This document shows positions 3,277-8,658 of a stretch of 24,000 nucleotides of DNA, piece by piece; positions within the stretch are counted from its first letter, which is position 1, and every line of letters begins with the position of its first letter. Made by a program: the position numbers and the translations under genes. This stretch comes from an uncultured Methanomicrobiales archaeon (lineage in GTDB: Archaea > Halobacteriota > Methanomicrobia > Methanomicrobiales > Methanospirillaceae): positions 22,026 to 46,025 of the forward strand of contig CAIYHQ010000110.1 in the NCBI GenBank assembly GCA_903926075.1. Direction: 5' to 3'. Under the pieces are notes generated by a model. The model did not search any database. It was given only the letters and a program-made list of their open reading frames with translations, and had not been told where the DNA came from.

Positions 3277-3286
3277 TTTTATATAG
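3277..3286 (+). promoter_or_regulatory. TATA box candidate for a leaderless transcript starting at about 3308
   Basis: ttttatatag is centred ~26-27 nt upstream of ATG 3308, and no Shine-Dalgarno sequence lies between. This is typical archaeal leaderless geometry. Confidence 0.45.
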
Positions 3287-3307: not shown

Positions 3308-4045
3308 ATGGAAGATACTGTTTTTAAAGTTCAGGTAAGGACATTTCCAAGTAAGGGACGTGCCAGGGTCCATATCGACGCGCTTGATCAGATAGGTCTC
3401 AAAGAAGGCGATAGTGCTCTTATTGTGAACCTCTCATCCTCAAAAGAGGTGAAGGTTGCAATAGTTGCAGACAGCCTGGTGGAATCAGGATATATCCGGA
3501 TGAGTCCAGAAGACATGACTGAACTTTCAATCCTTGAAAATGATGAAGTCGTGGTCAGGCGATACATTCCAATCGGAGAAAAAATATCAAAAAACCTGAA
3601 AGATGGAACTGACAATGTCAAAAAAAGTCTTGGTGATACAAAAGATACAATATCAGATAAAATCGGGTCAGCATCCCACGGAATAACAGAGTCAGCATCT
3701 GAAGCATTCGGCAAAGTTGGAGATAGTCTTCCCACGCGTGATGATCTATCAGGTGTTGTTGAGCGGGCAAAACTTCACCTGGCGCCCGGTGAAGAGAAGA
3801 AACTGAAACAAATGCTCGAGAAGAATGAAGGTGCAATCAAATCATATAAGGTATCACAGAATTACAAAGAAATTTCTGGAACTGGCGGAATCTCCCTTCC
3901 CGATGAAGTCCTTATAGCCGCAGTTCAAAGAGGAGAGAAAGTCATTATCCCTGGGCCAGGTCTCAAATTAGAGTCTGAAGATATAGTTTTTCTTGTGGGT
4001 AAAGAGAAGGGGCTAAAAGAGGCTAAATTAATCTTTGAGGAATAG
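3308..4045 (+). CDS. CDC48/VAT-N-like double-psi barrel + 11-residue periodic linker + TrkA-C (RCK_C) domain protein
   Basis: N-terminus FKVQVRTFPSKGRARVHIDALDQIGLKEGDSALIV...GYIRMSPEDMTELSILENDEVVV resembles the VAT-N/CDC48 N-domain. C-terminus ISLPDEVLIAAVQRGEKVIIPGPGLKLESEDIVFLVGKEKGL resembles TrkA-C. Confidence 0.65.
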   Translation: MEDTVFKVQVRTFPSKGRARVHIDALDQIGLKEGDSALIVNLSSSKEVKVAIVADSLVESGYIRMSPEDMTELSILENDEVVVRRYIPIGEKISKNLKDGTDNVKKSLGDTKDTISDKIGSASHGITESASEAFGKVGDSLPTRDDLSGVVERAKLHLAPGEEKKLKQMLEKNEGAIKSYKVSQNYKEISGTGGISLPDEVLIAAVQRGEKVIIPGPGLKLESEDIVFLVGKEKGLKEAKLIFEE

Positions 4046-4046
4046 A

Positions 4047-4442
4047 ATGGATTTTAATTCGATTTTTGGAATGACATCACAGGATTGGATGATTCCCTTT
4101 GTTATAATTAGTGCAACAATAATTATTATTATAATTCTGCTCTTTGCATGGCGTAAAATGACAACCGGGACAAAAAGACTGGAACTTGAACTTGAAAAAG
4201 AAAAAGTCGGGCTCCTGAAAAGAGACCTTGAAATAAAAGGTCATCCTGTGACAAAACTGACCCCTGAGCAATCACACCAGATTCGGACAGTAGAGGATGA
4301 AAATCAAATACTCGAAGTTGAATTGTACGCAAAGCACCGCATTGTTGAGTCCCGGATAAAGAGACTTGAGTATTATGTTGAGATAAGTAAACTTGAGCGG
4401 ATGCTTATAAAACTGGATAACGAAGAGAAAAAGTCAAGGTGA
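4047..4442 (+). CDS. Single-pass membrane protein with cytoplasmic coiled coil
   Basis: TM segment MIPFVIISATIIIIIILLFAW followed by heptad-rich KRLELELEKEKVGLLKRDLEIK...RIKRLEYYVEISKLERMLIKL. ATG 4047 is preceded by GAGGA and lies 1 nt after the upstream stop; the track start TTG 4035 is less likely. Confidence 0.6.
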   Translation: MDFNSIFGMTSQDWMIPFVIISATIIIIIILLFAWRKMTTGTKRLELELEKEKVGLLKRDLEIKGHPVTKLTPEQSHQIRTVEDENQILEVELYAKHRIVESRIKRLEYYVEISKLERMLIKLDNEEKKSR

Positions 4443-4450
4443 AAAGAAAA

Positions 4451-4753
4451 ATGTACGGTTATTCTGATATTACTAATGCTGGAAACAAAGTTTCCACAAG
4501 TTTTCAGGGTTTTTTTACTAATTCGCTGCCTACATTTGAAAAGAGACTCGACCGGTATTTTCTTGAAAATTTTGAAGCAATTATTGATGAATGGGCACTC
4601 CTTACAGAGGATGACCTCCTTGAATTAGAGAGGAGACTGGATAAAGCAATAGATTCTCTAAGAAAACTGGAAAAAAGTCGTTCAGAGATAGAAGATGATC
4701 TTATGGAAATTCAATCGCTGATTAGTGAACTGGAGACAGAGCATGGGAATTGA
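4451..4753 (+). CDS. Small soluble coiled-coil protein, paralog family member 1
   Basis: Core RLDRYFLENFEAIIDEWALLTEDDLLELERRLDKAIDSLRKLE. The start is either ATG 4451 or GTG 4439 (GTGA overlap with the upstream stop). Confidence 0.55.
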   Translation: MYGYSDITNAGNKVSTSFQGFFTNSLPTFEKRLDRYFLENFEAIIDEWALLTEDDLLELERRLDKAIDSLRKLEKSRSEIEDDLMEIQSLISELETEHGN

Positions 4754-4961
4754 TAACTATTTAAATGCCTACGTTGACCGGAGAATGGCACTTCTTATCG
4801 ATGAATATGGAATTACAACAAAAGCCGACCTGGCAGATCAGACCCAGAAAATAAAAAAACTGGAGCAGGCAGTTGAGAAATTTCACACGTTTGACAAGGA
4901 TGCAAAAAAGAGAATAACAAATCTTAAAGAGAGAGTAGATAACCTGAAGGTGAAGGGATAA
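4743..4961 (+). CDS. Small soluble coiled-coil protein, paralog family member 2
   Basis: Core YLNAYVDRRMALLIDEYGITTKADLADQTQKIKKLEQAVEKF. ATG 4743 is preceded by GGAG (4732-4735) and overlaps the upstream gene by 11 nt. Confidence 0.55.
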   Translation: MGIDNYLNAYVDRRMALLIDEYGITTKADLADQTQKIKKLEQAVEKFHTFDKDAKKRITNLKERVDNLKVKG

Positions 4962-5302
4962 TGACTCCGTTTGAAATAATTCTCGTTATTCTTATAATTG
5001 TCGTTATCTGTTTTCTTCTATATTACTTCCTGAAAGGTAGGACTGGGAAAATCAATTTGTCAAGTCCTATTGAGAGCCGACTTGATCAATATCTTGATGT
5101 CAAGTTTGAGGAAATGATAACGGAGTGGTCACTTGTCACAAAAACAGGTCTTGCGAAGTTCGAACTCCTAAACAACGCACGGATCAAAGACGGGGAGGCG
5201 ATTGCAAAGAATTACGGACAATTTGAAGATTCTGTAGGAAAAACCCTTTCAGAACTGGAGGAGAGACTTGAATCTCTTGAAAGGGAGATTAGGAAGCGCT
5301 GA
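4961..5302 (+). CDS. Membrane-anchored coiled-coil protein, paralog family member 3
   Basis: N-terminal TM FEIILVILIIVVICFLLYYFL, then SRLDQYLDVKFEEMITEWSLVTKTGL...LSELEERLESLEREIRKR. The start overlaps the upstream stop (TAATG). Confidence 0.6.
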   Translation: MTPFEIILVILIIVVICFLLYYFLKGRTGKINLSSPIESRLDQYLDVKFEEMITEWSLVTKTGLAKFELLNNARIKDGEAIAKNYGQFEDSVGKTLSELEERLESLEREIRKR

Positions 5303-5660
5303 ACCTCAAAAACATGAAGAAGAGAGAGATCTTTTCCATGTTTTAAGAGAGGTTGTAAAACCCTTGAGGTTTCAGGGAGATCCACCCGGTCGGGACCCGC
5401 ATACTTTCTCGAGGTTTCTTTGTGATCTCTGTCACCTTTCAATACAGATAGAAGGACTAAGGCAATGTGTTATCTGTGGACGGTGGTGCTGCCCTTCATG
5501 CTGGAACGAGGAGTTATACGTCTGCAGGTCATGCAATGGAATTATAAAACTCTATTCCATGAAGATGAAAAGGGATGGAGATGATCCTGGAGCAAGATGC
5601 CACAGTCAAAATACTAATGATCAAATTGATAAGATGTATGAGAGTAAAGAGAAACAATGA
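5268..5660 (+). CDS. Cys-rich zinc-finger protein (four CxxC knuckles, FYVE/RING-like or double zinc ribbon)
   Basis: C52-x2-C55-x11-C67-x2-C70-G-x2-C74-C75-x2-C78-x7-C86-x2-C89. The start is uncertain: the only in-frame ATG is 5268, a 35-nt overlap with the upstream gene, and an internal TTG start is possible. Confidence 0.5.
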   Translation: MNLLKGRLGSAEPQKHEEERDLFHVLREVVKPLRFQGDPPGRDPHTFSRFLCDLCHLSIQIEGLRQCVICGRWCCPSCWNEELYVCRSCNGIIKLYSMKMKRDGDDPGARCHSQNTNDQIDKMYESKEKQ

Positions 5661-5677: not shown

Positions 5678-5836
5678 ATGGCTGATTATCACTGTGACCG
5701 TTGCGGATACAAACTCAGTCATGAAAACTTTTTCATAGTTGATGGCTGTGAAACAGGTTATCATTGCCCACATTGTGGTAATGAAGTTGACTGGGATATC
5801 GATAGTTGTGAAGACCCTCTTGAAGGAGATATCTGA
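5678..5836 (+). CDS. 52-aa zinc-ribbon protein (not in the supplied ORF track)
   Basis: My own translation: MADYHCDRCGYKLSHENFFIVDGCETGYHCPHCGNEVDWDIDSCEDPLEGDI*. It has CxxC...CxxC knuckles, an acidic tail and a purine-rich aaaggggataaaagac directly upstream. Confidence 0.5.
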   Translation: MADYHCDRCGYKLSHENFFIVDGCETGYHCPHCGNEVDWDIDSCEDPLEGDI

Positions 5837-7049: not shown

Positions 7050-8216
7050 TTAGCGATACATACTTAGATCTAAATCTGAATCATCAGCAATGACTTTTCC
7101 GGTCGCTTCCAGAAAGTCTACCTGTTCAATCTTTTTTGCTTCTCTTCTTACGGCAATCATACCTGCTTCCCTGCAAATTGCTTGGATCTCAGCTCCCGTC
7201 GTACCTTCAGTCAGTTCAACAATATCCGTAAGATTTACAGATTTATCCAGATGAAGTTTTTTTGTATGGATTTTTAAGATCGCAATTCTTGACCTCTCGT
7301 CAGGGAGTGGTATCTCAATTATACGGTCAAATCGACCAGGTCTAAGTAATGCAGGGTCAAGCATATCAACCCTGTTTGTTGCCGCCATTATACGGATCTC
7401 CCCACGGTTATCAAACCCGTCCATCTCGGCAAGAAGCTGCATAAGCGTCCGCTGCACTTCAGCACTCCCGGAAGTGCCGTCGTTGGTCCTCGTACTTCCT
7501 ATTGCATCAATTTCATCGATAAAAACAATTGATGGAGCTTTCTCACGTGCAAGCAGGAAGAGTTCGCGCACCAGCTGGGCACCTTCACCGATATATTTGT
7601 GAACAAGTTCACTTCCTGACATCCTGATAAACGTAGCTTTGGCCTCATGGGCTACAGCTTTTGCAACAAGAGTTTTTCCAGTGCCTGGAGCACCATAAAG
7701 AAGAATTCCTTTGGGTGGTTCAACGCCCAGTCGCTCAAAGATATAGGGTTTAGTCAGAGGATATTCAACTGATTCGCGTACCTCTTCAACCTGGTCTTCC
7801 AGGCCTCCGACCTGTTCAAAGGTAACATCGGGTGACTCTTCAAGTTCCATGATCCTTACCCTTGAGTCAAAAATATTTCCAACAATTCTGACGACCGAGA
7901 GTGCATTATTGACTGCAACTTTTATCCCGGGTTTGAGGAGCAGTTGCATCTCTTCTGATACAGAAGTAATGTATTCCTGGTTATTTCCCATCTGACGCAG
8001 GTATACTTCGCCATTTTCAAGGATATCTACAACTACTGCAACAAAAAGCGGGATTTTTTTTAACTGGCTTATCTCTTTGCGAAGTTGGTTGTTTTCCCTT
8101 AAAACCTCTTCAAAGCGTACTTTTACTTCGAGTGCGTGTGCCTCAAGTTCCTGAAGCCGCAGCTGGAACTTAAGTTCATTTTCATTGATTATGTTTTCAG
8201 GAATACTCTCCTGCAT
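7050..8216 (-). CDS. pan: Proteasome-activating nucleotidase (AAA+ ATPase PAN)
   Basis: N-terminal coiled coil; Walker A GAPGTGKT; Walker B IVFIDEIDA; second region of homology; C-terminal hydrophobic-Tyr-X tail (MYR). The maximal ORF extends to 8282, but that start would overlap the divergent gene. ATG 8216 has a TATA-like taataaat 28-35 nt upstream. Confidence 0.9.
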   Translation of the reverse strand: MQESIPENIINENELKFQLRLQELEAHALEVKVRFEEVLRENNQLRKEISQLKKIPLFVAVVVDILENGEVYLRQMGNNQEYITSVSEEMQLLLKPGIKVAVNNALSVVRIVGNIFDSRVRIMELEESPDVTFEQVGGLEDQVEEVRESVEYPLTKPYIFERLGVEPPKGILLYGAPGTGKTLVAKAVAHEAKATFIRMSGSELVHKYIGEGAQLVRELFLLAREKAPSIVFIDEIDAIGSTRTNDGTSGSAEVQRTLMQLLAEMDGFDNRGEIRIMAATNRVDMLDPALLRPGRFDRIIEIPLPDERSRIAILKIHTKKLHLDKSVNLTDIVELTEGTTGAEIQAICREAGMIAVRREAKKIEQVDFLEATGKVIADDSDLDLSMYR

Positions 8217-8221
8217 AGCAC

Positions 8222-8251
8222 TTATTAGATAATCACTCGCCACATTTATTA
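8222..8251. promoter_or_regulatory. Bidirectional promoter region (two AT-rich TATA-like elements)
   Basis: ttattagataat (8222-8233) lies ~27-38 nt upstream of ATG 8260. atttatta (8244-8251), read on the minus strand, lies 28-35 nt upstream of ATG 8216. Confidence 0.35.
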
Positions 8252-8259
8252 GGTTTGAT

Positions 8260-8658
8260 ATGCGCATAAGTGGAAGAAGCATCGCACGCGGGCATGGAAA
8301 AGGAGAAATACTCGTTAGTCATGAGCCAATCTCATTTCTTTCCGGGGTTGATCCTGATACAGGTACAATAATTGAGAAGGGAAATCCTCTTGAGGGGAGA
8401 TCAATTACAGGAACGGTTTTTGTATTCCCTGAAGGAAAAGGATCAACAGTAGGTTCATATATCCTCTATGCACTGGGGAAAAACGGTCATGGACCTGCAG
8501 CGATAATTAACCGCGATACCGAACCTATTGTTGCAGTAGGGGCTATAATTGGAGGAATCCCACTTGTCGACCGTCCGGACGTCCCGTTTTCAGCTTTCAA
8601 AAATGGAGTCATTGCTGAGGTAAATGGAGATACAGGGGAGATAATTCTCTTTTTATGA
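8260..8658 (+). CDS. Aconitase-X small (swivel, DUF126) subunit; probable phosphomevalonate dehydratase small subunit
   Basis: 132 aa. G.GKGEILVS.EPISFLSGVDP.TG.I.......EG.SI.G.V.VFP.GKGSTVGSY.LY......GP.AII matches the DUF126/AcnX small-subunit pattern. This family acts in the modified archaeal mevalonate pathway. Confidence 0.65.
   Translation: MRISGRSIARGHGKGEILVSHEPISFLSGVDPDTGTIIEKGNPLEGRSITGTVFVFPEGKGSTVGSYILYALGKNGHGPAAIINRDTEPIVAVGAIIGGIPLVDRPDVPFSAFKNGVIAEVNGDTGEIILFL

Follow-up and report, generated by a model that had tools for sequence, protein, structure and literature searches.

In the 24,000-nucleotide (nt) stretch of DNA from an uncultured Methanomicrobiales archaeon analysed here (the window), three adjacent small genes, designated A, B and C, encode paralogous proteins that, on balance, would form a membrane-associated hetero-oligomeric coiled coil; its more specific form, a membrane-tethered A-B-C heterotrimer, is put forward tentatively. 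The genes are part of a tight six-gene string on the + strand (3308-5660), with the order Cdc48-N-like, TMcc, A, B, C and Prok-RING_2, in which TMcc denotes a single-pass membrane protein with a coiled coil of its own. All coordinates are positions in the window, and the genes are located on the + strand unless stated otherwise. A first-pass annotation of this DNA had proposed a hetero-oligomeric coiled-coil assembly at the membrane; this proposal is supported by the three paralogs per cassette genome, the old triplication, the coupled genes, the charge pattern and a charge swap between A and B. The six-gene cassette and the two-gene core described below are beyond what that annotation had seen.

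A, B and C are true, old paralogs. The three open reading frames (ORFs) had been called correctly with regard to coordinates, starts and peptide strings, and the core that had been aligned by eye is recovered by pairwise BLASTP (A-C, E 1e-7; A-B, E 0.005; B-C, E 0.002). In Smith-Waterman alignments against 3000 shuffles, a comparison suggested by the first-pass annotation itself, the similarity is above that of shuffled sequences of the same composition for each pair (A-B, z 5.1, 1/3000; A-C, z 10.0, 0/3000; B-C, z 10.7, 0/3000), while TMcc, a neighbouring coiled coil of similar composition, scores z ≤0.3 against each of A, B and C. Comparison of the ortholog alignments with hhalign gives E 6.8e-10 for A-C, 3.9e-14 for A-B and 4.5e-14 for B-C. 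The strongest conservation is found outside the heptads, in the preceding helix with its invariant Tyr and its near-invariant Asp and Glu-Trp. In the tree, A, B and C form well-supported clades; divergent A-like and C-like members join the A and C clades at 89/77 support, and the triplication therefore predates these lineages.

Three conserved elements make up each family member: an amphipathic helix of the pattern h-D-x-Y-[LF]-D-x-x-[FM]-x-x-[IV]-[IV]-x-E-W, a turn of the capping-box type (L-x-T-x-x-D) and, over ~45 residues, a coiled coil in heptads. A, B and C belong to this family, with motif helix, capping turn and coil matched over the whole profile. In the AlphaFold2 (AF2) model of A, a disordered region (residues 1-27) is followed by the motif helix (30-48), a break (49-52, A-L-L-T) and a long coiled-coil helix (53-99), the latter with a predicted local distance difference test score (pLDDT) of >90. 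A heptad coiled coil after each core had been predicted and is consistent with hydrophobic periodicities of 3.5 in A, 3.5 in B and 3.6 in C, which were reached by 2, 11 and 14 of 500 shuffles, respectively. The LE..LE-type endings, however, hold for A and C and not for B, which reads LK..LK. The assignment of one membrane-anchored and two soluble copies is retained: C possesses a membrane helix at residues 3-28 (AF2), after which it continues as one continuous helix, and A and B are soluble. Basic residues are located after the membrane helices of both C and TMcc; both coils would therefore be cytoplasmic, on the same side as A and B, and the topology predicted for C is N-out/C-in.

A family profile of 42 sequences (15 A, 14 B and 13 C orthologs), searched against 1.84 billion representatives, retrieved 432 proteins at E<1e-3, of which 76 had E<1e-10. 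Among the 150 matches listed, ~130 are proteins of 60-200 amino acids with a single match across motif helix and coil, while ~20 are generic coiled coils, long and with many stretches, whose match is confined to profile positions 45-89; most of the listed matches are thus small, single and whole-profile, and the profile, a search that had likewise been suggested, does not merely collect generic coiled coils. Distant family members retain the motif helix, and a second family search yielded 720 homologs. Nothing over threshold was obtained for the A/B/C family in Pfam, NCBIfam, PADLOC or PHROGs; because the last two gave no family, an origin from defence systems or phages was discarded. The Atlas neighbours of the family share no common Pfam 38.1 family, sequence searches of the PDB with the A and B ortholog profiles returned generic or designed coiled coils only, and Foldseek of the A model against the PDB and AFDB clusters gave nothing below E 3. 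Longer homologs scanned for informative fusions contained extra membrane helices only, plus one probable intein or chimera artefact. In some family members several predicted membrane helices, rather than one, precede the conserved core, and membrane anchoring is a recurrent theme of the family. In Methanobrevibacter-type members, sub-threshold DUF4446 and DUF948 matches lie over the membrane helix. One such member bears the precomputed Pfam accession PF28206.1, absent from the Pfam copy used, which may be a newly created family for these proteins.

Conservation of the gene string was assessed in a scan of one genome per species, which yielded 136 loci, by their record titles from Methanoregula, Methanolinea, Methanospirillum and unclassified Methanomicrobiales metagenome-assembled genomes (MAGs); gene order was judged on 80 of these. 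The order Cdc48-N-like, TMcc, A, B, C, RING is kept in ~75 of the 80 loci, and beyond the six genes no flanking gene is conserved except in close kin. The six genes are an autonomous cassette of Methanoregula-type Methanomicrobiales. In an even, 301-genome sample of the phylum, strong Prok-RING_2 matches and family matches fall in the same 18 genomes, and each of these holds exactly three of the latter. One 400-contig MAG contains three cassette copies, each on a contig of its own, which may stem from mixed strains; a second MAG carries an isolated C-like gene apart from its cassette.

Divergent cassettes of other archaea again combine two soluble members and one anchored member with TMcc, a Cdc48-N-like protein and a RING protein. 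In one from a marine metagenome the order is TMcc, A, B, C, RING, followed by a Cdc48-N-like protein without TrkA_C; in a variant order, the Cdc48-N-like protein precedes one soluble and one anchored member; next come TMcc, the other soluble member, a zinc-ribbon protein and finally a PRC-barrel protein, with Prok-RING_2 located upstream. The variant cassettes, with TMcc between the paralogs, stem from unidentified archaea (L148:1676-4304, L149:516-872, L101:994-4023 and L147:1-2365). What they add is a protein whose C-terminus bears a C-x2-C...C-x2-C zinc ribbon, together with a PRC-barrel-like protein recognized by a faint Pfam match, the latter being a faint hint toward cell division; in L147 a phage-type integrase lies 2 kb away.

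In Methanobrevibacter and in a Methanopyri-like MAG, TMcc is accompanied by one anchored member only. TMcc of the window aligns end to end with the partners from these two sources and from the variant cassettes, and, as a constant partner, it accompanies the family in every lineage examined. Its 691 homologs are all unnamed and without a Pfam family, and one of the records is named Methanobrevibacter smithii. TMcc and the anchored member are common to all lineages and therefore constitute the core, to which the soluble paralogs, the barrel and the RING protein are additions. The ancestral form of the family would be one anchored by an N-terminal membrane helix and encoded beside TMcc. Family and TMcc are thus conserved over at least three methanogen lineages; for neither TMcc nor the A/B/C family, with its several hundred homologs, was a curated family, a name or any literature found.

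The arrangement of the coils can be approached through the sequence R(g)-h(a)-x-x-h(d)-E(e), a published motif specifying parallel three-stranded coiled coils (PMC3653964). Its in-register occurrence in the A/B/C family is new here. It lies in heptad register within the last two heptads of the family (layers 1 and 2); C of the window carries the canonical form, R102-L-E-S-L-E107, with R at g and E at e. All 13 of 13 C orthologs carry the motif (0.2 expected), as do 28/54 distant relatives (0.8 expected); A and B have one-charge variants. Among C orthologs the reading R-L-D-A-L-E is also met with, a variant called a strong trimer determinant (PMC3653964). In the single-member proteins, g is basic and e is acidic in both layers in 108 of 109 cases, so that these proteins are self-complementary, which is what assembly into a homo-oligomer requires.

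In the cassettes the losses differ between the three paralogs, a different charge element being missing from each. Among 92 cassettes, A has Arg at g1 in 91 and Arg or Lys at g2 in none, with mostly Asp, not Glu, at e1; B has Arg at g2 in 91, and Lys or Arg in place of Glu at e2 in 72; C has Arg at g2 in all 92, and at g1 Arg in none and Lys in three. Each layer thus contains one defective g and one defective e. If the strands are placed in the cyclic order A->B->C->A, with g directed to e' of the next strand, the defective positions face each other in both layers, the pattern closes into a three-membered ring, and four Arg/Lys-Glu bridges are left; the opposite order places Arg against Lys.

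The sharpest evidence is a cross-gene charge swap in the window, which bears on the A-B neighbourhood. The window cassette is unique among 88 distinct cassettes in having the only Asp at A-g1 (D83) and the only Lys at B-e1 (K62). In the two relatives closest to it (67-71% identity), A-g1 is likewise acidic (Glu or Asp) and B-e1 is Lys, and the mixed state at these two positions occurs in 0/90 cassettes. The exchange of Arg for Asp in A and of Glu for Lys in B would be a compensating swap across two genes, as an A(g)-B(e') ion pair within a parallel coil in register predicts. It argues for a direct, parallel A-B contact and would fit an A-B-C heterotrimer. The window would hence offer a rare natural experiment, in which a homo-oligomeric coil has apparently been made into a fixed-order hetero-oligomer by complementary charge loss, and the Arg/Glu to Asp/Lys swap makes the assembly model directly testable.

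From these observations the following scenario may be drawn. An ancestor would have had one anchored member, always encoded beside TMcc; this member was triplicated in Methanoregula-type methanogens. On the cytoplasmic side of the membrane, the three copies would most likely assemble in parallel and in register, and a 1:1:1 A-B-C three-stranded coiled coil with the cyclic order given above fits best. C would tether this rope through its membrane helix, and TMcc would be associated with it; the rope is inherited together with the Cdc48-N-like barrel protein and the RING-type zinc finger, and would probably be their membrane docking scaffold, with the invariant Y...E-W helix as the leading candidate for the docking site. 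A much bolder version, improbable as a whole, would see here a hitherto unrecognised archaeal membrane machine, in which an obligate A-B-C stalk, derived from a homotrimer whose strands each gave up one salt-bridge partner, would hold a Cdc48-N-like substrate/adaptor barrel and a RING finger at the inner membrane face. Such a machine would be a prokaryotic counterpart of the eukaryotic membrane-bound RING/Cdc48 quality-control platforms or a new cytoskeletal/division element, and the two-gene core would stand for a membrane structure widespread among methanogens, the human-gut species M. smithii included.

Two known systems offer a comparison. With the R-hxxhE trimers of coronin-1, ccbeta, engineered GCN4 and cortexillin-1 (PMC3653964), A, B and C share the Arg at g, the aliphatic residues at a and d and the Glu at e, in two consecutive heptads near the C-terminus. 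Trimers of the coronin-1 type are homotrimers, whereas here one charge is lacking per paralog, from which a heterotrimer with a fixed order of strands is predicted. FtsB, FtsL and DivIC may be likened to A, B and C in mode of action only: they are small single-pass proteins whose coils pair into a fixed hetero-oligomer that recruits others to the membrane. Their coils, however, are located outside the cytoplasm, whereas a cytoplasmic position is predicted for those of A, B and C, and there is no sequence relation between the two groups (DivIC is matched only at E 0.07-0.34).

Several points weigh against the heterotrimer. TMcc carries the trimerisation motif too (R-I-K-R-L-E, 11/13 orthologs), and, given this motif, different stoichiometries, for instance a bundle of four helices that includes TMcc, would also be candidates. 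The AF2 monomer models of A and C are uninformative on partners, and co-transcription of the cassette is presumed. The charge swap is probably a single evolutionary event, worth ~1 in 88 at most, and the agreement of both layers on one cyclic order amounts to a coincidence of ~1 in 2 to 1 in 3. The net charges of the whole coils in the window (A, -9; B, +5) would be complementary, yet this complementarity is not conserved in the orthologs, and the argument was dropped for that reason.

An assembly of the three paralogs other than an A-B-C trimer, be it the four-helix bundle with TMcc or an A-B dimer combined with a C/TMcc complex, is the alternative to be considered first, unlikely as it appears. 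TMcc, itself a carrier of R-hxxhE, is the invariable partner in all lineages, those with two genes must build their complex from TMcc and one member, and the charge swap indicates the neighbourhood of A and B only. Such an arrangement would leave unaccounted for the presence of exactly three paralogs and the neat three-membered ring closed by one defective g and one defective e per layer; moreover, TMcc is unrelated in sequence to A, B and C and differs from them in length and layout.

It is rather improbable that A, B and C form separate homo-oligomers, diverged or partly redundant, with their adjacency reflecting tandem duplication only. The canonical layer-2 motif retained by C would permit self-association, and the single-member relatives are self-complementary. 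A homotrimer of B, however, would set Arg(g2) against Lys(e2) in 72/92 cassettes, all three paralogs are kept in single copy in every cassette, the divergent ones included, and the swap between A-g1 and B-e1 is hard to explain without A-B contact.

A different kind of alternative was raised by the resemblance to phasins and to UbiK/BMFP proteins, which the first-pass annotation had described as pattern-level only; this caution was justified, the scores being below the Pfam cut-offs and the hhalign probability 38%. That A, B and C are true phasins of the PhaF/PhaI type (PF05597), coating polyhydroxyalkanoate (PHA) or another hydrophobic inclusion, is very unlikely. PF05597 is the most frequent sub-threshold Pfam family, with matches in 11/15 A, 4/14 B and 0/13 C orthologs and in 6/54 distant relatives. 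Measured against the curated cut-offs of 28.8 bits for Pfam PF05597 and 94.7 for TIGR01837, B reaches 17.8 and 16.8 bits, respectively, the best ortholog having E 9.4e-5; for A and C there is no match to either at E<=1. All window proteins are thus below the cut-off, and the matched region is confined to profile positions 84-124 of 126. Aligned by hhalign with genuine archaeal PF05597 proteins, the 42-sequence family profile pairs L-x-T-x-x-D-L...L-E-x-R-L with its counterpart at E 3.4e-4, but over 44 C-terminal columns and with a probability of 37.8%; the alignment of A orthologs gives 8% and a second alignment of the family 34%. The PhaE and Phasin clusters listed by the Atlas feature search score 0.78-0.79, and scores <0.9 are within noise.

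The likeness to PF05597/TIGR01837 consists in a short helix, an L/V-x-T/S-+-x-D-L capping turn and an L-E-x-R-L...L-E coil start, with the same register in HMMER and in hhalign alignments, and both groups are small and helical; the tail of the Cdc48-N-like gene 1 protein, with its 11-residue amphipathic-type repeats, may be added on this side. On the other hand, the N-terminal G-x-G-x-W-A-x-T-E-E-K of archaeal PF05597 proteins is absent from A, B and C, the Y-x-D...E-W helix of the latter is absent from phasins, and the ancestral form of the family is membrane-anchored. No PhaC_N match was found in the genome, which is 96.9% complete, and the control matched in Caulobacter; PhaE was not matched either, but its control matched nowhere, so that this is a weak negative. 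In 18 of 21 sampled Methanosarcina-type genomes, from another family of the phylum, a phasin-like and COG3937-like protein of 105-125 amino acids with the conserved G-x-G-x-W-A-x-T-E-E-K N-terminus scores at or just over the PF05597 cut-off; to our knowledge, these organisms are not known for PHA storage.

A role as UbiK/BMFP-like accessory factors of lipid or quinone metabolism is less probable by far. Apart from small size and the pattern of an L-V-T-R-x-E/D turn followed by a coiled coil, it is backed by BMFP (PF04380) matches in one of 14 B orthologs (E 0.032) and one of 54 distant relatives (E 9.4e-4), but no window protein matches PF04380 at E<=1, and the gene context contains neither a biosynthetic enzyme nor any other sign of a quinone pathway. 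We know of no ubiquinone synthesis in Methanomicrobiales. The likeness to phasins and UbiK is best read as a shared turn-plus-coil motif rather than membership. Finally, that the similarity of A, B and C is a by-product of generic coiled-coil composition, for which one could invoke the generic hits in the PDB profile searches, has practically no probability left and was refuted by the profile-profile E values (7e-10 to 4e-14), by shuffle z values of 5-11 with no similarity to the like-composition neighbour TMcc, by the best conservation falling on the non-heptad motif helix with its invariant Tyr and near-invariant Glu-Trp, and by the hundreds of small homologs matching across the whole profile.

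The features of the cassette are listed in Table 1. The position of the TTTATATA box suggests that the first cassette gene would be leaderless. The cassette genes overlap or abut and are translationally coupled: TMcc and A are separated by an 8-nt spacer with GGTGA, A and B overlap by 11 nt, the ATG of C overlaps the stop codon of B (TAATG), and gene 6, with the TTG at 5268 taken as its start, shares 35 nt with the end of C. Longer GTG starts would be possible at 4439 (A) and 4725 (B); the ATG starts at 4451 and 4743 are preferred because of the ortholog alignment.

Table 1: Features of the six-gene cassette and its upstream region in the window.
Feature	Position	Strand	Basis and remarks
TATA-box-like element TTTATATA, archaeal type; putative promoter	3278..3285	+	Read from the sequence; 22 nt before the first cassette ATG
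Gene 1, Cdc48-N/VAT-N-like beta-barrel, linker with 11-residue periodicity, TrkA_C	3308..4045	+	Pfam, autocorrelation
Gene 2 (TMcc), single-pass membrane protein with predicted cytoplasmic coiled coil	4035..4442	+	End-to-end alignment with partners in other lineages
Paralog A, 100 amino acids, soluble	4451..4753	+	Ortholog alignment, AF2, heptad analysis
Codon of A Asp83, heptad g, motif layer 1	4697..4699	+	Arg in the other 87/88 distinct cassettes
Paralog B, 72 amino acids, soluble; motif helix and coiled coil	4743..4961	+	Ortholog alignment; 11-nt overlap with the end of A
Codon of B Lys62, heptad e, motif layer 1; charge-swapped partner of A Asp83	4926..4928	+	Glu in the other 87/88 distinct cassettes
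Paralog C, 113 amino acids; membrane helix, motif helix, 4-residue insertion, coiled coil	4961..5302	+	Ortholog alignment, AF2
C residues 102-107, R-L-E-S-L-E, canonical Arg(g)-h(a)-x-x-h(d)-Glu(e) trimerisation motif, in register	5264..5281	+	Heptad register, definition of PMC3653964
Gene 6, Prok-RING_2 zinc finger protein	5268..5660	+	Pfam PF14445, 94.9 bits (cut-off 22.4)

Gene 1, a type present in ~75/80 related loci, scores 25.1 bits with CDC48_N, which is below the cut-off, and 37.3 bits with TrkA_C, which is above it. Its linker/tail region (window 3584-3748) shows a lag-11 autocorrelation of 4-7 standard deviations over shuffles in 6/6 proteins, namely the window protein and five orthologs. 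Most orthologs stop after the 11-residue-repeat tail, without TrkA_C, and this domain is therefore an optional addition.

Gene 6 is a clear member of Prok-RING_2 (PF14445, 94.9 bits) and co-occurs one-to-one with A, B and C. The gene neighbourhoods of Prok-RING_2 were reportedly defined by Burroughs, Iyer and Aravind in 2011, in work that is said to concern the zinc finger, and we know of no experimental function for the family; literature searches on Prok-RING and PF14445 gave nothing relevant. Through the cassette, one could approach what prokaryotic RING finger family 2 and the stand-alone Cdc48-N-like proteins do, neither of which has an assigned role. The E2 domain UQ_con was not matched in the genome, but its control matched nowhere, so that this negative is weak. 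A PAN-like AAA+ gene (7050-8282, minus strand), located 1.4 kb from the cassette, was considered as a partner of the Cdc48-N-like and RING proteins and rejected, being adjacent in 1/80 loci only; the adjacency looks coincidental. Following the RING gene, a 52-codon zinc-ribbon ORF (5678-5836) has its own Shine-Dalgarno-like AGGGGA; at the ORF and score thresholds used, it was found beside the cassette in none of the 80 related loci, and it is probably not part of the module. DNA of the window is found in freshwater and lake metagenomes.

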